Shown here: positions 53,741-62,756 of the stretch, in pieces | How positions within the stretch are numbered: position 1 is the first letter of the stretch | Layout: every line of letters begins with the position of its first letter | Assembly (NCBI GenBank): GCA_029856145.1 | Contig: JAHQWK010000012.1 | Coordinates: 64,001-128,000 of the forward strand | DNA length: 64,000 nt | Reading direction: 5' to 3' | Origin: Promethearchaeia archaeon | Lineage (GTDB): Archaea > Asgardarchaeota > Lokiarchaeia > Sigyniarchaeales > SOKP01 | The notes under the pieces: model-generated | Told to the model about the DNA's origin: nothing | The model's input: only the letters and a program-made list of their open reading frames with translations | Database searches by the model: none | Translations under genes and position numbers: made by a program

Positions 53741-54535
53741 TTATTTTTTCATGCTATAGTAAGCTATAAGGTCGTCTAACCAATTGAAGATTTCTTCTTT
53801 TGATAGATTGTCAAGATTAAACTTCAGTCTTTCTAATTCTCTTAGAATATTTTTAATATCCAATGGTATAGATCGTTGACATAGTTCAAATAAAAATTCA
53901 TTACTCTTTGTAACCAATGATTTAATTTCCGAATCCATTGCTTCAAATATAGGAGTATTATCTAATTCATCCACAGTTTTATCAATATCTACAAGTAAAT
54001 TTATTAAATCAAAAAGTCTTCCCGTTTCATTTCCTTTAAATGAACTATGAAACTGAAAGAAATAACCCCTGTAATCATCTATAGGAATTAATTCGGAATA
54101 TTGATTCGCTATTCGAATAACAGATTTTATATGTTTATATAGATTCGATGGAGCCCATGCATATAAATCAAGACTAGACTCTACTTCCTTACTTCGTATA
54201 TCTAAATTAAATTGATGCTCATCTTTAAAATAACCAAAAGGAATAATAACAAAATCCAATGAATTTACACTATTTTTCGTTAAAGAAAAGCTTAGATCAT
54301 CTATAGTATAAGCTTGATCTAGTGAATGTCTATATAAGTTAAATTTTATTTTTTTAATACCTGGTTTATACATATAAAATAATAATCCTTCAAATCCCTG
54401 AAGACTAAACTCTACTGAAAATTTTATATCTCTTTTTATATTCGCTCCATTATTAAATCTTACATCAAGAAATAAATGATAATAGTTTTCAAGATACTGG
54501 AAAAACCAAGGAGCATCGCGCTTTAAATTAAACAT
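53741..54535 (-). CDS. Hypothetical protein
   Basis: 264-aa ORF, no motif recognised. Confidence 0.6.
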   Translation of the reverse strand: MFNLKRDAPWFFQYLENYYHLFLDVRFNNGANIKRDIKFSVEFSLQGFEGLLFYMYKPGIKKIKFNLYRHSLDQAYTIDDLSFSLTKNSVNSLDFVIIPFGYFKDEHQFNLDIRSKEVESSLDLYAWAPSNLYKHIKSVIRIANQYSELIPIDDYRGYFFQFHSSFKGNETGRLFDLINLLVDIDKTVDELDNTPIFEAMDSEIKSLVTKSNEFLFELCQRSIPLDIKNILRELERLKFNLDNLSKEEIFNWLDDLIAYYSMKK

Positions 54536-54682
54536 AATTATTTTAACTATATTTTATTATTTATTTCTTATTATCTAATAATCCCTAAGATAAATACAAT
54601 GGAATTGTGTAATTGTACAAAATTATAAAATTCCAAATTATTAAATAATCCTTTATTATTTAAACTTTACAATCGTTTTTAA

Positions 54683-54973
54683 TTAAGTTTTAAAATCTAA
54701 AATTCTAGAACCATGAAATAATCTAACTATTTGAACCTTATCTCCAAAAATTCTATAAATAAGACGATAATTTCTTAAAATTAATTCTCGAATATTTGGA
54801 TCGTCGAGCTCTGGTACTTTTCTTCCCAATTTCGGAAATTGAGTTAAACTTTCAACTTTTTCACGAACCAGTTCATAAAAGGAAAGAGCATATTCAAGCG
54901 AGTCTTGAGCAATATAATCAATAATCTCATTCAAATCATTTTCTGCTGTTGGAGACCATTCTATTTCAACCAT
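54683..54973 (-). CDS. RelE/ParE family toxin
   Basis: WSPTAENDLNEIIDYIAQDS, FPKLGRKVPE, YRLIY, HGSR. Confidence 0.9.
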   Translation of the reverse strand: MVEIEWSPTAENDLNEIIDYIAQDSLEYALSFYELVREKVESLTQFPKLGRKVPELDDPNIRELILRNYRLIYRIFGDKVQIVRLFHGSRILDFKT

Positions 54974-55161
54974 TTTTCCAATCTCTTTTTAGCATTTTCC
55001 ATGACTTGTTCATGAGGAATTACTTTTCCTAGCTTAACTTCTTCAATACCCGTTAATATCTTCTTTTTAACATATAGATGATACATGATATCATCAATTG
55101 TAGCATCTTCTGGTAATTTTCTTATAAGGGCTATTATTTCTTCCTTAAGATTAGTAGTCAT
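54961..55161 (-). CDS. Antitoxin of the RelE/ParE pair
   Basis: LPEDATIDDIMYHLYV..I..G..G..HE; overlaps the toxin start. Confidence 0.85.
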   Translation of the reverse strand: MTTNLKEEIIALIRKLPEDATIDDIMYHLYVKKKILTGIEEVKLGKVIPHEQVMENAKKRLEKWLK

Positions 55162-55527
55162 AAGTTCTCACTATCTAAATAATCATTTTAACTTTTATAA
55201 TTACTTATCCACTTTTAATAACCCATAGAAATGATAACAATCTTTCTAATTGAAAAACTTTCTGGCATTGTCATATTCATTAAATTTAAAAAAAAATTAT
55301 TTAATTAAAATTCTCCAGTTATTTCATCTTGTCTCAAAACTTCTCTGAATTTGGTACGATTGAAAGAAATTAAAGATATTTTTTCAATCAGATCTCCGTT
55401 ATTTGAAGCGAATACCAGTCTAGTTGGTTCTTTATTATCGTATCTTTCTTATTTAAATCTTACAATCTCAATAAGAATGTTTAAAAAAATTAAAAAAATA
55501 AAAGAATTTTAAGATTATACTATTTAT

Positions 55528-56406
55528 CTATATACCAAGCTTTTCTAATACTCCAGATAATCTTGTACGATGAAATTTTAATCCTAATTCATCCGGACTA
55601 AATCCCATTGCTAAAGCATATAATTCTGTTAGATACAAAACAGGGATTCCATATTCGGTTTCGAACATCTTGCCGAGATCTCTTTGTCTAGTATCAAATT
55701 GCTGGAAACATGATGGACAGTTCACAACAATGACGTCCGCACCAGTCTTTTTAATACTATCCATTTTTTTCTTTAGATTTGCCATGCCATGTTCCTCATA
55801 TGCATTTGTTACTGCTGAACCGCAACAAAGTGCAATTTCTTCATAGTCTACTACTGTAGCCCCAGAAAGAGCTGCTAACTCTTTTAAATTAGTCGGTCGC
55901 ATTGGATCGTCGGATTCCATCCATTCAGCGGGTCTCATATAATGACACCCTGGATGGCAAGCTACTTTCAAACCACCTAATTGTTTAGTTATAGCTCCTC
56001 TAATCTTATCCAATCCCACTTCATCTTTCAATACATCAACAAAATGCTTTATATCTATAGACCCTTTAAATTCCTTCCCGATTTTTGCCAGCTCCGAATT
56101 GACCTTTTCCTTCTTCAAGCTATCATGCTCTAATTGATGCTTTACACCTCTTAAAGTATTAGCACAACCATTACATAATGATACAATGTCCTTACCCTCT
56201 GTTTCTGCTAAACATAGATTTCGAGCACCGATTGTTAACCACGCATCATTATCAAAACATTTTACTCCAGTAGGATCTGGACAACATGAGAATGGTGCCT
56301 GAGAGGTTTCAATACCTAGCTTATCAAAAACTTTTCTTGAAGCAGCTTCAATAAAAGGAATTCTATTACCAATAACACATCCCTCAAACATTTTATATTC
56401 TGTCAT
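55528..56406 (-). CDS. hdrB: Heterodisulfide reductase subunit B
   Basis: Two CCG domains: GC..CCP..CNGC and GCH..CCG..CPSC. Confidence 0.9.
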   Translation of the reverse strand: MTEYKMFEGCVIGNRIPFIEAASRKVFDKLGIETSQAPFSCCPDPTGVKCFDNDAWLTIGARNLCLAETEGKDIVSLCNGCANTLRGVKHQLEHDSLKKEKVNSELAKIGKEFKGSIDIKHFVDVLKDEVGLDKIRGAITKQLGGLKVACHPGCHYMRPAEWMESDDPMRPTNLKELAALSGATVVDYEEIALCCGSAVTNAYEEHGMANLKKKMDSIKKTGADVIVVNCPSCFQQFDTRQRDLGKMFETEYGIPVLYLTELYALAMGFSPDELGLKFHRTRLSGVLEKLGI

Positions 56407-56422
56407 TTTTCTTATCCTCGAA

Positions 56423-56932
56423 TTATTTTAGTTTTTTATCTGTTCCAATATTTTTTAGTAATGTTTGTACTTCATTCACATCTGGTACTACTACCGCTGG
56501 TAAACCTAATTGTTCTCTTCGTCTCTCAATTGCAGGTTGTGAAGGAATTGCTTTGGCATTTTCGAAAACTGTTTTTGCCTGTGAATAGATAAATTCTGGA
56601 CCTTTCCCTAGAGCAATACTCTGGTTTTTTAGAAATGTAAAGATTTCTGTAAGCTCAATATTTTGGGGACATACCTCATCACATGTATCACAAACAGTAC
56701 AACCCCAAATAGTTAACTCATCTCCTCCAAGGAGTAAACCTTTATATCCTAAAAGAGCAAATAAGATATTTTTTCTAGGATTATAACCCTTAGCCGGGTC
56801 ATAAAAATCCGCGGTAACATCAGTTACAGGACAATTATCAGCACATCTACTACATTGATAACAGTATTTAATCACATCAGGCCCAATATGGTAATCTAAA
56901 ATCTGTTTTCTCCATTCAAAGTTTACTTCCAT
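56423..56932 (-). CDS. hdrC: Heterodisulfide reductase subunit C
   Basis: CYQCSRCADNCP and CTVCDTCDEVCP. Confidence 0.9.
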   Translation of the reverse strand: MEVNFEWRKQILDYHIGPDVIKYCYQCSRCADNCPVTDVTADFYDPAKGYNPRKNILFALLGYKGLLLGGDELTIWGCTVCDTCDEVCPQNIELTEIFTFLKNQSIALGKGPEFIYSQAKTVFENAKAIPSQPAIERRREQLGLPAVVVPDVNEVQTLLKNIGTDKKLK

Positions 56933-56977
56933 TTTTTTTCACTTTTTTTCTTATTTTTTGAATGATTTTTTTTATTT

Positions 56978-57055
56978 GTAGGCTTTAACCCCACGCAAGG
57001 GGCAGTTATATCCAATTTCTATTATTTTTATTGGACATTCATCCTATAAGCCTAC
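56978..57055 (-). promoter_or_regulatory. Candidate SECIS element 3' of vhuU
   Basis: AUGA followed by stem AUGUCCAAU/AUUGGAUAU with an AAAAA-starting loop, plus outer helix GUAGGCUU/AAGCCUAC. Confidence 0.6.
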
Positions 57056-57190
57056 GTTCAAATTTCGAGAGTAAATCTCAGTGCCCTCTTCATTAACTAC
57101 AGTAATGTGAGCAGCACACGATAGTCAACAGTCAAAACAGCGAACTATCATTTCCAAGAGATTTACTACACCTTCTGGTATATCACTCAT
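57044..57190 (-). CDS. vhuU: Selenocysteine-containing hydrogenase subunit VhuU (UGA = Sec22)
   Basis: MSDIPEGVVNLLEMIVRCFDC-U-LSCAAHITVVNEEGTEIYSRNLNVGL; TGA at 57125-57127; supplies the L2 motif absent from vhuA. Confidence 0.92.
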
Positions 57191-57233
57191 CTTTTTTTAT
57201 TCACTTTTTTATTTAATTTTCAATATATTTGAT

Positions 57234-58538
57234 TTATTTAATCCATGGGTCTGGTAATTTTAATCCATCTAGTGCCTTGTCTTCGAAAACCTGTTTAGCT
57301 ACATGCATTAATGTCTTTTCAATTCCCGCAATATTATGGTTAGTTGCTACTAAGAGATTTGCTTTTTTACAAATTCCTTCAGCATCTGACCAAATATGAT
57401 ACAAAAGTAATCCTCGTGGAGCTTCAGTGACGCCAACACCATCTCCTTCTCGTGGTTGGACATCCAAAGTTTTACAATCTGGATTTACCACATCATCATC
57501 TTGAAGGAGTGTTGCTACAACTTCAATTGACTCAACTAATTCAATTAATCGAGCCCAATGATATGCGAATGTATGATGAGGTATGTTTCCAACTTTTGCT
57601 CTCATTGCTTGCAATGCTTCATCAGCTAAGGGAGTTGCCATTTTATCTGCACAGTTAATCATTGCTAATGTATTCGCTCGATAAATACCTTCAGGGTATC
57701 CAGCAGGTTTATAATACATGTGAGTTGCATAAGAATGTTCTGGAATGTGTTCACCTAAAGCGTCTAAATATTTCTGAGGTGGATAATCGAATTTCTCTCC
57801 ATCAGGAGAAACAATACGAATATCACCATCATAAATATCATGAACACCATTTTTAGTCATACCTAAGTAATAAGTTGGAACAACACCAACATTAGCAACA
57901 ACATCCCAATAATCTTCGACAACTTTTAAACCAATATCCACAGTCTTTTTTGTCCATTCAACTTGATCCTCAATTTGTTTTAAAAACAAATCTCGAACAT
58001 CTTCATCTAAAGGCTTTTTCATTCCACCAACTATAGCAGAAATTGGATGTACAGATTTACCACCTACTGCAGCGCATAATTTCTGTCCAAAATCCATCAT
58101 TTTTAATGCCATTGTACCGACTTCTGGCATTTTATTGATGACATGAACAACATTCCTTAGCGCAGGATCAGCGAAAGGTCCTAATAAGAAATCAGGAGCT
58201 GCAAGTGCATAGAAATGAAGTGCATGTGATGAATATTGCTTTGCATTCTGTAACAATTGACGTAATTTATATGCTGCAGGAGGAATTTGAACGCCCCAAG
58301 CGTCTTCTACTGCTTTGGTAGGTGTTAGATGATGAGGTATCGGACATATACCACAAATTCTTGGAGTAATTCTAGGGATATTTTCGCAATATCTTCCTTC
58401 AAGAAATTTCTCAAAAAATCTTGTCGAAGTGATATTGAATTGAACATCTTGTACCTTTCCATCATCACCTAAGACTAATCTTAAGCCTCCATGTCCCTCT
58501 AATCGAGTCACGGGGTCTACTACTATTTCTTTTACCAT
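57234..58538 (-). CDS. vhuA: F420-non-reducing (group 3c) hydrogenase large subunit, split type
   Basis: TRLEGHG, RFFEKFL.GR, RICGICP, EAPRG.L.H; ends without DPCxxC. Confidence 0.92.
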   Translation of the reverse strand: MVKEIVVDPVTRLEGHGGLRLVLGDDGKVQDVQFNITSTRFFEKFLEGRYCENIPRITPRICGICPIPHHLTPTKAVEDAWGVQIPPAAYKLRQLLQNAKQYSSHALHFYALAAPDFLLGPFADPALRNVVHVINKMPEVGTMALKMMDFGQKLCAAVGGKSVHPISAIVGGMKKPLDEDVRDLFLKQIEDQVEWTKKTVDIGLKVVEDYWDVVANVGVVPTYYLGMTKNGVHDIYDGDIRIVSPDGEKFDYPPQKYLDALGEHIPEHSYATHMYYKPAGYPEGIYRANTLAMINCADKMATPLADEALQAMRAKVGNIPHHTFAYHWARLIELVESIEVVATLLQDDDVVNPDCKTLDVQPREGDGVGVTEAPRGLLLYHIWSDAEGICKKANLLVATNHNIAGIEKTLMHVAKQVFEDKALDGLKLPDPWIK

Positions 58539-58542
58539 TTTT

Positions 58543-59856
58543 TTATACGCCTCCTTTTCTTGATGCTAATGTAAATTTTTCAAAAGTGCCAATAGGATCT
58601 TTTACTTGAGCAAGTAGTTCATCTTTGGATAAACTCACATTGAATCCCTTAAGTATAGTATCTGCAAATCTCTCTGCTTGATCAACACCCCATTCTGTCT
58701 GACCATAACAGCCAGAACATGGAGCGTTAACCTTGATACATAGACCGCCACAGCCAGCACGAGTAACAGGACCCATACAGATATATCCTTGTTCAATAAG
58801 ACAATCATCCATATTAGGAAGCCCTTCATAGTCTCTTTTAACTTTTGTCATTGTAGATTTGCTTCCAATAATCCGAGGACATGTGTCACAGACGTTTGAG
58901 ATTTCAGTGAAATCTGAATTATCTCTCAAGAAAGCCATTAAACTTCCCGCAATTTCCTCTGTTGTTGGAGGTAAATTTGCTATGGGTGTGTCAGGAGTTC
59001 CATGTTTCTTTACTTGTTTTAGGATATCTCCAGCTAAATCAAAACCTGCCATTAATGGGACATTCAAGAATAATGTTAGAAATTCATACAAATTCTTTTT
59101 ATCTCCTGAACTAATAGCACCAAGACTCTTCGTCATACTGCCTAATTTTTCTGCTCTAGAATCAACTGTCTTTGCAGGCCCAAAGCAACCAACACAGGGT
59201 TTTCCTTTACTGGTACATTTTAAGCTGCAACCAATACTAGTTATGGGACCGAAGCATAATTTTCCTGCGTCTAATAAACAGTTATCTTTAATAGCACAAT
59301 CATTACAATATGCAAGATCATTCATAGGAAATGGCTTTTGTCCTAATAAGAATATCACAGCACTGACAATCTGTTCTGGTCTAGGCGGACACCCTGCCAT
59401 ATAAACATCTACATTAATAATATCATCAACAGGAACGATTTTATCTCTAAAACCGGGAGTATGTTGTGTTGGTTCACCACCACTTCCATCAGCTATACTT
59501 TCTACTTCAGAGAATTTTCTTCTTACTAAGTCATCTTTATTCCACTGGTTAGCTAATCCATGTACATTTCCATAGCAGGAACAACTTCCAAAATTAATGA
59601 TTAGAGCGCATTTTTCTCTCATTAGTTTGACGTTTTCATAATCTTCATTAGTTCTAACAGAACCTTCAATGAATCCGACTAATATTGAACCGTTTTCTCT
59701 CGCTTTCAATGAATCATGTTTAAAGTCTACTACTGCTGGCCAGTAAACTATTTCGAGTGCTGGAAGAACTGGCAATAATCCTAAATGAGCATTCAATAAG
59801 GATTGATGACAACCCCAACAATCGGAAAGTTGCATAAAAGCTACTTTTACTGCCAT
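58543..59856 (-). CDS. vhuG: F420-non-reducing hydrogenase small subunit with duplicated distal Fe-S module
   Basis: DCWGC, GSCSCYG, GCPP, two C..C/CL..G..C.GP.T..GC..C..PC.GC.G blocks. Confidence 0.88.
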   Translation of the reverse strand: MAVKVAFMQLSDCWGCHQSLLNAHLGLLPVLPALEIVYWPAVVDFKHDSLKARENGSILVGFIEGSVRTNEDYENVKLMREKCALIINFGSCSCYGNVHGLANQWNKDDLVRRKFSEVESIADGSGGEPTQHTPGFRDKIVPVDDIINVDVYMAGCPPRPEQIVSAVIFLLGQKPFPMNDLAYCNDCAIKDNCLLDAGKLCFGPITSIGCSLKCTSKGKPCVGCFGPAKTVDSRAEKLGSMTKSLGAISSGDKKNLYEFLTLFLNVPLMAGFDLAGDILKQVKKHGTPDTPIANLPPTTEEIAGSLMAFLRDNSDFTEISNVCDTCPRIIGSKSTMTKVKRDYEGLPNMDDCLIEQGYICMGPVTRAGCGGLCIKVNAPCSGCYGQTEWGVDQAERFADTILKGFNVSLSKDELLAQVKDPIGTFEKFTLASRKGGV

Positions 59857-60407
59857 TTTTTATCAATTTTTTTTTGTATATTTTGTTTGTTTAAATTAGC
59901 TAATTTAAATTAAAAAAAATTAGTTGAGATATGTTATTCATAACTGTATTAAAAAGTTCTGATTCCTTTTACATTCTGATAAAATTATTTTTACAATATG
60001 AATAAATATTCAAAATTTACATTTAGCTAAATTTGGAAGCAGATTTTTAATTAACTCCTTATTATATTTTAGAAAATGAAATATTTATTTTTTTATTCGT
60101 TTTAAGCGAAAATAATAAGCCTTTTATCGAATAAATTAACTAAATTTATCTGATTGTGGTAAATGATAATTCCATTAAAATAACTATGTTCTTGTGTTAA
60201 ATTTTAATTATTAATGTCGACCTTGTTTTAAGAGTATTTGAAGATAAATTTTGTATTAATAAAACTGATAATTTTGTAGAAGAAAAACTGACTGACTAAT
60301 TTCATTAATTTTAAATATTTTACCATCTAATTAGAATTATCATTCATTTACCTATCGAATGATTATTCAAAACAATTAAATAAAAAACAAAAAAAAGTTG
60401 GATAGAA

Positions 60408-60641
60408 ATGGTAGATATTACAGATACACTGGATTGCACGGGCGATGTTTGTCCTTATCCAGATGTAAAAAGCAAAAGAAGAGTTAAAAAGATGAATTCA
60501 GGAGAAGTACTTGAAATTCTCCTTGATTATCCTCTTTCAGCTGAGAGAATTCCCGAAACTATGAAATCTCTAGGGCATGAAGTGCTATCTGTAGATAAGA
60601 CCGGAGATTCTTCTTGGAAGATTCTCATCCAAATAAAATAA
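60408..60641 (+). CDS. TusA/SirA/YedF sulfur carrier
   Basis: LDCTGDVCPYP, GEVLEILLD. Confidence 0.9.
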   Translation: MVDITDTLDCTGDVCPYPDVKSKRRVKKMNSGEVLEILLDYPLSAERIPETMKSLGHEVLSVDKTGDSSWKILIQIK

Positions 60642-60642
60642 G

Positions 60643-61701
60643 GTGAAAAAAAAAATGGAATTTTGGTATGCATTAATAGTAGGACTTATTATTGGAGGTA
60701 TTTTTGGTTTTATATTACAGCGCGGAAGATTCTGTATGAATTCAGCCTTCAGAGATATCATTTTAATGAAAGAATTTAAGCTCGCAAAAGCAGTCGTGGT
60801 CTCATTGGCCGTCTTAATGATTGGTTTCGCGATATTTGCATTTGGCGGAGTAATTAATTTAGCTCCAAAACCATTTAAACCATGGGCAGCAATAGTTGGT
60901 GGTTTAATATTTGGAGGTGGAATGGTTCTTGCAGCTGGGTGTGCAAGTGGAACTACATATCGAGTCGGAGAAGGAATGATGGGATCTTTTGTCGCTGCTG
61001 TTGGGTTAACAACCGGTGCAATAATGACAAAGTTTGGGCCTCTAAATCCATCAATGCTATTCTTACAAGATGTTGTAGTTGGAGGAAACCTTACAATTTT
61101 TGGAGAATTCGCAGACTTAGGAACAATATTACCGACTTTGATGATTATTATTGGTATAGTAGGGATTGCCCTTATGCTTTTTTTCTGGGGATGGCCAGCT
61201 ATAAAGAAAAAAAGAGAAGCAAAGGAACCTTTAATAAAAACTGAAAATTTTGTAGAATCAACCTTTAAAAAAGGATGGCCTTGGTGGGTTACTGGTATTG
61301 GTGTTGGTATAATATTAATAGCTGGTTACGTTGCTAGTAATGGTGTAGTAGGTATTACAGGTGGTTGGATTAATATCGATTTATGGCTCGTTTTTGGAGG
61401 GTTAAGTCCTATTGGATGGACTGGTGCTATAATTTTCGGTATTATCCTTGGATCATTCGTTAGTGCTATTATCGCTAAAGAGTTTAAGTTTAGGGTTCCG
61501 AAAGAAGGGTTCACATTGGTTAAGCAGTTTATAGGCGGAGGCTTAATGGGATTTGGTGCTGTAACAGCGATGGGATGTAATATAACAAACATATTAGGTG
61601 GAGTACCTCAGTTTTCATTACATAGTATTATAGCGGGCGCATGTATAATGTTTGGAGCTTGGATAGCAGCTTATCTTCTATTTATGTGGAGACAAGACTA
61701 A
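60643..61701 (+). CDS. YeeE/YedE (thiosulfate/sulfur compound) transporter
   Basis: LQRGRFCM, GMVLAAGCASG, MGFGA...GCNI. Confidence 0.9.
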   Translation: MKKKMEFWYALIVGLIIGGIFGFILQRGRFCMNSAFRDIILMKEFKLAKAVVVSLAVLMIGFAIFAFGGVINLAPKPFKPWAAIVGGLIFGGGMVLAAGCASGTTYRVGEGMMGSFVAAVGLTTGAIMTKFGPLNPSMLFLQDVVVGGNLTIFGEFADLGTILPTLMIIIGIVGIALMLFFWGWPAIKKKREAKEPLIKTENFVESTFKKGWPWWVTGIGVGIILIAGYVASNGVVGITGGWINIDLWLVFGGLSPIGWTGAIIFGIILGSFVSAIIAKEFKFRVPKEGFTLVKQFIGGGLMGFGAVTAMGCNITNILGGVPQFSLHSIIAGACIMFGAWIAAYLLFMWRQD

Positions 61702-61723
61702 CTTTTGGAGATGAGAGAGAAAT

Positions 61724-62086
61724 ATGGGACGACTTGGAATACTTTTTTTCAATGGACCATACCAAGCAGAGTCTGCTGAAACTGTTTGTAAATTAGCGAG
61801 CACAGCATTAGATAAAGGTCATGAAGTGCGAATTTTTTGCTATATGGATGCTGTCAATGCAGCTTTAGAAAATCAAAAAGATATTGAAGGAATATATAAC
61901 ATCGAAAAAGCGTTCAAAGAAATCCTTGAAAAAGGAGCAACTGTGAGATTATGTAACCTATGTCTTTTAGTGAGAGGTACCATGAAAAATTGTTTAAAGA
62001 GAGAATGCGGAGATGTTAAAAGAGCTGGGACACCAGATCTTGCTAAGATTATTGATGAAACTGATAAATTAATAGTAATATGTTAA
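61724..62086 (+). CDS. DsrE/TusD-like sulfur relay protein
   Basis: GPY, GHEV.IF.YMDAV, C..C...RG. Confidence 0.85.
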   Translation: MGRLGILFFNGPYQAESAETVCKLASTALDKGHEVRIFCYMDAVNAALENQKDIEGIYNIEKAFKEILEKGATVRLCNLCLLVRGTMKNCLKRECGDVKRAGTPDLAKIIDETDKLIVIC

Positions 62087-62097
62087 GGTGATAATAA

Positions 62098-62442
62098 ATG
62101 TCAGAAGAAAAAGAAGTAGTAATACTTTTACGGCAACCCCCTCATGGAACACTTTATCCCGTTGAGGGTCTAAGAATGTCGGTTGCTGTAAGTGCAGATT
62201 TTGATCCAATAACCATTGCTATTAATGATGGTGTCTATACCTTTCTTAAAGATGTAGATAAAACGATGTATTCAATGCACATAGATTTTCTTAAGAATAT
62301 TGACTTGGATATTTATGTAGATAAGAAATCACTTGATGAACGTGGTCTTACGAAAGATGATCTAATAGAACAAATTGAGATCAAAGAACATGGTGAAATT
62401 TTGAAAATGATTGAAAATTCAACCGTAACTATACCATTTTAG
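62098..62442 (+). CDS. DsrF/TusC-like protein
   Basis: PPHGT, EGLR, DGVY, SL.ERGL. Confidence 0.85.
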   Translation: MSEEKEVVILLRQPPHGTLYPVEGLRMSVAVSADFDPITIAINDGVYTFLKDVDKTMYSMHIDFLKNIDLDIYVDKKSLDERGLTKDDLIEQIEIKEHGEILKMIENSTVTIPF

Positions 62443-62447
62443 GAGGT

Positions 62448-62756
62448 TTGATGACAATGAGCAAAAAAGTCTTGTATTTTATCACAAGTGAAGATATCAC
62501 AGGAGTAGAACTTGCTATGGAACATACTGATGAAGATGATGTAACAATTCTCTTACTCCAAAATGCTGTATATTTCGCAAATAAAACCAATAAAACTGTT
62601 TCACAAGCACTCAATCAAAAGAAAACTGTAGCAGCCTGTAAAGAGCATATAGATTTACGAGGTTTAAACAATTTCGTCTCTGATAAAATTAAATTAGTTG
62701 CTTCCGAACAAGTTATCGACTTAATTTTCGAAAATGATACTATCATAAATATGTAA
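62448..62756 (+). CDS. DsrH/TusB-like protein
   Basis: ILLLQNAVY, EH..LRG, IDLI. Confidence 0.8.
   Translation: MMTMSKKVLYFITSEDITGVELAMEHTDEDDVTILLLQNAVYFANKTNKTVSQALNQKKTVAACKEHIDLRGLNNFVSDKIKLVASEQVIDLIFENDTIINM

Follow-up and report, generated by a model that had tools for sequence, protein, structure and literature searches.

Organization of the hydrogenase locus

The window, the whole stretch of 64,000 nucleotides analysed here, derives from a Lokiarchaeia (Asgard) genome (hereafter G000) and contains a probable operon of five genes, vhuG, vhuA, vhuU, hdrC and hdrB, arranged head to tail on the same strand (Table 1). Scans for sigma-70 promoters and for terminators, with models ill-suited to archaea, stayed at chance level. 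The VhuA protein contains the L1 motif RxCGxC, the Glu of TRLEG and the Arg of APRG and ends without the L2 motif, in agreement with the original prediction, according to which this large subunit lacks its second Ni-binding motif. Its closest structures are the 418-aa large chain of PDB 9sfi, aligned over residues 4–418 (E 8.5e-125), and MvhA of 5odc; its best NCBIfam family is NF041785 (E 1.3e-141; 471.9 bits against a cut-off of 800). In G000, a genome of 97% completeness, PF00374 matches VhuA alone and PF00346 (group 4/NuoD) matches nothing. The nearest homologues, at 95% identity, are labelled Promethearchaeota/Lokiarchaeota.

The small subunit, VhuG, displays a duplicated 8-Cys medial/distal Fe–S module (Cys 184–224 and 323–383; internal BLAST E 7e-13) and, judging from its sequence, may carry up to five Fe–S clusters. 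Homologues in this Loki family are ~435–441 aa long, and those of the Thor/Atabeya loci have 303–313 aa and a single module. The best NCBIfam family for the protein is VhuG (NF045875; 246.7 bits, cut-off 450), and VhuU, VhuA and VhuG are indeed each best matched by their own NCBIfam equivalog, all below the curated cut-offs. The hdrA–vhuD genes are located elsewhere in the genome, and there are 11 PF02662 matches outside the locus. HypC and a HypE-like gene are found within the window, with HypD and HypF just beyond it.

On the opposite strand, a TsuA/YeeE-like transporter gene and three small ORFs, DsrE/F/H-like as judged by eye, adjoin the hydrogenase operon divergently (60643–62756, plus strand). 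The transporter matches NF052577 below the cut-off (E 3.4e-75) and is similar to the selenium-linked YedE as well.

Table 1. Positions of the genes and sequence elements discussed in the text, numbered within the window unless a contig is given
Feature	Position	Strand	Remarks
hdrB-like gene	55528..56406	minus	CCG-domain subunit
hdrC-like gene	56423..56932	minus	2x[4Fe-4S] subunit; 111 nt past vhuU
lokiSECIS, eukaryote-like	56978..57055	minus	pattern, fold, covariation
lokiSECIS lower stem	57055-57048/56985-56978	minus	
lokiSECIS AUGA	57042-57039	minus	two bases past vhuU stop
lokiSECIS upper stem	57038-57030/57016-57008	minus	perfect, 9 bp
lokiSECIS AA	57007-57006	minus	
extra GC hairpin	57003-56988	minus	small, conserved
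vhuU	57044..57190	minus	selenoprotein gene whose product provides the L2 Ni/Fe-binding motif; 48 codons; start ATG 57190-57188, stop TAG ending at 57044
C-terminal extension	57047..57106	minus	20 residues past His28; predicted to be cleaved off by the maturation endopeptidase
in-frame TGA (Sec22)	57125..57127	minus	codon 22; at the first Cys of the Ni-ligand motif C-x-x-C
Cys21 (TGT)	57128..57130	minus	adjoins Sec; replaces canonical Pro of D-P-C/U
vhuA	57234..58538	minus	large subunit of group 3c, truncated; 434 aa, with L1 but no L2 motif
vhuG	58543..59856	minus	small subunit, 437 aa, 22 Cys
tRNA-Sec(UCA)	C8:12915-13007		
two tandem selD genes	G000:C9:622849-624880		one TGA each
tandem-UGA ORF	L204:1938-2414 = G000:C9:170437-170913	plus (L204)	158 codons; two adjacent in-frame TGA; outside the window
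maturation protease gene	G000 C24:101799-102098		passes the TIGR00072 cut-off

The vhuU gene and its in-frame UGA

The original prediction had placed an unannotated minus-strand ORF of 48 codons in the gap after the large-subunit gene. The ORF is real; its ATG lies 43 nt past the stop codon of vhuA, and it is interrupted by a single in-frame TGA. The encoded peptide aligns both with the L2 region at the C-terminus of unsplit MvhA (5odc_F 425–465) and with 9sfi_M, a chain of its own with 27 residues. In these alignments the TGA coincides with the first Cys of C-x-x-C, the Ni-ligating position to which it had been assigned. The motif reads R17-C-F-D-C21-U22-L-S-C25-A-A-H28, and the tail that follows, previously put at about 20 residues, has exactly 20. 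The comparison with a RAYDPU-type peptide, on the other hand, must be amended, since the residue preceding Sec is Cys and not Pro. A second extra Cys (57137–57139, minus strand) gives R-C-F/Y-D instead of R-A-Y-D in 107 of 118 motif matches, the remainder having N, S, I or G at this position. Among the NCBIfam families, the peptide is best matched by NF041786 VhuU (E 2.6e-13; 49.5 bits against a cut-off of 70, Sec being scored as Cys); it has no Pfam match, and vhuU is the single copy that tblastn detected in G000.

A match to the VhuU peptide at E≤0.1 is present in 56 of 61 related genomes and the best 41 matches all contain exactly one TGA (in one of them, a TAA is present in the tail as well), which argues that the ORF is not a product of chance. 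The pN/pS ratio amounts to 0.15 before the UGA and 0.19 past it, indicating purifying selection on the downstream codons.

A eukaryote-like SECIS after vhuU

A lokiSECIS, which the original prediction had not reported, is found 82 nt past the UGA. [quoted passage not shown] With the lower stem and the extra hairpin included, the predicted fold has an energy of −27.3 kcal/mol (z −5.12), and compensatory changes among 37 relatives affect 10 of the 16 predicted pairs. The strict SECIS pattern follows 73 of 137 vhuU homologues as compared with none of the antisense controls, and many of the homologues that fail it are register variants. Genome-wide, the bare pattern is not significantly enriched (12 matches versus 5–11 in Markov controls); the argument for the SECIS accordingly rests on position and covariation. 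A search of positions 54000–61000 against Rfam returned no SECIS family and just two chance matches. In most relatives the AUGA itself provides the stop codon, and in the present gene a 2-nt insertion creates a UAG stop just before it.

Decoding of the UGA

The genome encodes the machinery expected for Sec insertion. Besides tRNA-Sec, it contains SepSecS (E 5.8e-112), an EFSec/SelB-like factor on the same contig that scores slightly below the curated cut-off (E 3.2e-68; 230.6 bits, cut-off 242), as well as a PSTK-like kinase clearly below its own (E 2.3e-42) and two SelD above theirs, each with one TGA; four VhuD genes have two TGA each. Cys takes the place of Sec in three split orthologues (L041, L111 and P0140) and in one fused orthologue (L049). 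Together with conservation past the UGA, the SECIS and the TGA read in public contigs, these data support the original claim that the vhuU UGA is recoded as Sec. On these sequence grounds, the ORF is almost certainly the vhuU gene of a split group 3c [NiFeSe] hydrogenase of Lokiarchaeia, with a Sec-recoded UGA.

Two other accounts of the TGA have to be considered. As the codon stands in a Cys column and is one base away from TGT and TGC, it might be a Cys codon that was miscalled, or that mutated in a pseudogene. This is extremely improbable: the TGA is kept across several Asgard classes, the codons downstream are under purifying selection, a covarying SECIS follows the gene, and contigs with 0 differences from the window span the TGA in three DNA runs (X1, X2 and X4, the source sample possibly among them), reading TGA rather than TGT or TGC. 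Conservation thus refutes an error or a pseudogene. RNA support for the gene is weak: X6 and X9 probably represent DNA runs, which leaves contigs in one run (X19), and these must come from relatives since they differ from vhuU in 9–18 letters. Alternatively, UGA could have been reassigned to Trp throughout the genome, in the manner of code 4. This is how database gene callers read these ORFs: 18 of the 19 database matches to the VhuU peptide are long read-through forms, and all eight of those inspected have W at the Sec position. The W forms are nevertheless mis-calls, because they extend past the genuine stop and into the SECIS. Moreover, TGA ends 180 of 1299 long ORFs in G000, the sole tRNA found with a UCA anticodon is of the Sec type, and orthologues have Cys but never Trp, which cannot bind Ni. 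Stop-codon usage refutes a genome-wide reassignment, and there is next to no chance that it applies here.

The protein databases consequently hold VhuU relatives (P0122–P0139) mainly as mis-called code-4 read-throughs with Trp for Sec.

A further ORF of the same genome, outside the window, contains two adjacent in-frame TGA codons within the motif H-A-D-U-U-A-D; a perfect lokiSECIS comes after it, at C9:170922. Of 61 relatives, 50 possess homologues with two TGA, and both the UU pair and the SECIS are kept in the close ones. The ORF lies near an SBF/Acr3-like transporter and has no convincing Pfam match. Since this family is absent from the seven Asgard selenoprotein families given by Huang et al. 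2024 (PMC11227280), the gene is a candidate for a new selenoprotein family, which would be more novel than vhuU.

Cysteine next to Sec

The VhuU motif is D-C-U instead of D-P-U, so that a Cys adjoins Sec. The exact D-C-U pattern was found in 144 of 400 genomes of the Asgard phylum, as against a single match for the backwards control, and D-P-U in two of the same 400, both of one genus. This is the fair comparison, as the share of D-C-U among the vhuU homologues (131/137) is biased by the search pattern. The carriers are labelled Loki, Hel, Thor, Jord, Atabeya and MK-D1 in GTDB. Among 50%-identity cluster representatives with an L2 motif, the residue before the first ligand is Pro in 74 of 76, Leu in two and Cys in none; the present protein, with Cys21, thus departs from the canonical Pro of D-P-C/U-x-x-C-x-x-H.

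Some D-C-U carriers bear bacterial labels, namely 'Deferrimicrobium' (L091), 'Nanopelagicaceae' (L106) and a 2.7-kb 'Bacteroidales' contig (L087). The L091 peptide is identical to that of a genome of the same class (G057), and the three are probably mislabelled or mis-binned.

Both Cys codons are in use at the Cys21 site (75 TGC and 56 TGT among the homologues), which points to selection on the amino acid. Cys21 and Sec22 might form a redox element, a reversible vicinal selenylsulfide within the same enzyme, as at the C-terminus of thioredoxin reductase. The predominance of D-C-U over D-P-U, the use of TGC as well as TGT, the lack of Cys among the cluster representatives, and the presence of D-C-U in every Asgard class sampled, the Pro, Phe and Cys forms being nested within it, would all be in keeping with such a role. 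Against it, some intact Sec genes have Pro, Phe or Asn at the same site, and orthologues that have lost Sec (D-C-C) retain Cys21, which implies that an Se–S bond is not required. A selenylsulfide pair is therefore rather unlikely; its possible, not favoured functions would be to protect or regulate the Ni ligand, or to protect the free peptide before assembly. Most likely, Cys21 is a second-sphere residue that is selected but not essential. It is tempting to speculate that Asgard VhuU represents a distinct type of [NiFeSe] site, with the Cys beside Sec acting as redox switch or protectant and with a Loki VhuG of up to five Fe–S clusters, a picture that we regard as doubtful. No discussion of D-C-U or of vicinal Cys–Sec in hydrogenases, and no structure paper on VhuU, was found in the literature covered, from which most subscription journals were absent; nor is a Cys beside Sec mentioned in the passages on VhuU consulted in PMC4989117 and PMC11227280.

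Split and fused forms

In a quick IQ-TREE version of the large-subunit tree, the split Asgard proteins constitute one clade (SH-aLRT 100), within which the Pro, Phe and Cys-for-Sec forms are nested. As this tree has long branches and includes no Methanococcales row, it carries no claim as to a donor or to the origin of the split. In the same quick tree, a fused D-C-C protein groups as sister with the split Sec form from its own genome, which suggests, at the level of sequence, that the fused form arose through secondary fusion of a split gene.

The genome concerned (G053) possesses a split Sec VhuA/VhuU (L035, contig C9) and the sister fused Cys version of 493 aa (L049, contig C211). The latter looks like a re-fusion accompanied by Sec-to-Cys replacement, and perhaps serves as a backup at low selenium.

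Proposed enzyme and its significance

The enzyme is closest to MvhA/VhuA, and its Hdr and MvhD/VhuD partners are encoded, as befits group 3c. The split in the large subunit falls at the point known from the Vhu of Methanococcales, VhuA carrying the L1 CxxC and VhuU the L2 UxxC and His28. By homology, the SECIS, with EFSec and Sec-tRNA, would recode the UGA as Sec, and VhuU would dock on VhuA to complete the Ni–Fe site, with Sec22 as terminal Ni ligand and Cys25 bridging Ni and Fe. The 20-residue tail would be cut off after His28 once Ni has been loaded. That the tail is cleavable is supported by homology, the parallels being the 27-residue mature chain in 9sfi and the maturation protease encoded in the genome; a stop 6 codons after the His in one relative (L017) would fit a dispensable tail. 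The expected product is a cytoplasmic group 3c [NiFeSe] hydrogenase, partner of HdrABC/VhuD, and the hydrogenase–Hdr complex may perform flavin-based electron bifurcation or confurcation.

Since vhuU escapes gene callers, the sole [NiFe] large subunit detected in the genome looks broken without it; H2 metabolism through the VhuA/VhuU enzyme would depend on selenium. The annotation of vhuU is correct and useful but adds little as a discovery, the gene and its SECIS having been in print since 2016. What remains of interest is the Asgard-wide change from Pro to Cys beside the Ni-binding Sec, together with the long VhuG, both of which bear on H2 exchange in models of eukaryogenesis.

Comparison with known systems

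The vhuU gene of Lokiarchaeota and its SECIS are already known, as they were published in 2016 and surveyed in 2024. Mariotti et al. 2016 (PMC4989117) count VhuU as one of five selenoprotein families of Lokiarchaeota and describe it together with VhuA, VhuG and a SECIS, and Huang et al. 2024 (PMC11227280) give 'FrhA/MvhA/VhuU' for 68.3% of Sec-using Asgard archaea. VhuU has also been described in Atabeyarchaeia and Freyarchaeia (PMC11291895). The present gene and the published Asgard VhuU are one gene family of one class. Lokiarchaeota VhuU.1 (PMC4989117) has the same ~50 aa with a single Sec, with vhuA and vhuG in the genome, and the VhuU form of its lokiSECIS shows the same AUGA, 9-bp stem, A-rich loop and AA at the stop codon. 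The two differ in the loop, which has 13 nt here and 11 there, and in the stop codon, a UAG brought about by the 2-nt insertion here, whereas in VhuU.1 the AUGA of the SECIS is the stop.

The VhuA/VhuU/VhuG of Methanococcales share with the Asgard enzyme the split point, the Sec at the first L2 ligand, the tail after the His and the Hdr partners. The motif of Methanococcales VhuU is the canonical D-P-U, in contrast to D-C-U here. The SECIS is euryarchaeal there and eukaryote-like here, and VhuG has 288 aa as compared with 437 aa and a duplicated Fe–S module in the present, Asgard host, whose proteins score below the cut-offs of the Methanococcales equivalogs (NF041785, NF041786 and NF045875). 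The same split layout is seen in PDB 9sfi and 9t1s, with chains of 418 and 27 aa in the former.

The unsplit group 3c MvhA of MvhAGD–HdrABC (PDB 5odc, 9sw2) is collinear with VhuA and VhuU taken together, but is a single chain with a Cys ligand and D-P-C, as opposed to a split protein with Sec and D-C-U. Sec likewise serves as terminal Ni ligand in the group 1 periplasmic [NiFeSe] hydrogenases (HysA; PDB 2wpn, 1cc1). HysA, however, is unsplit and distant from VhuA (E ~1e-25, N-terminal part only), and relies on a bacterial in-frame SECIS, whereas the lokiSECIS of vhuU is placed after the stop codon.
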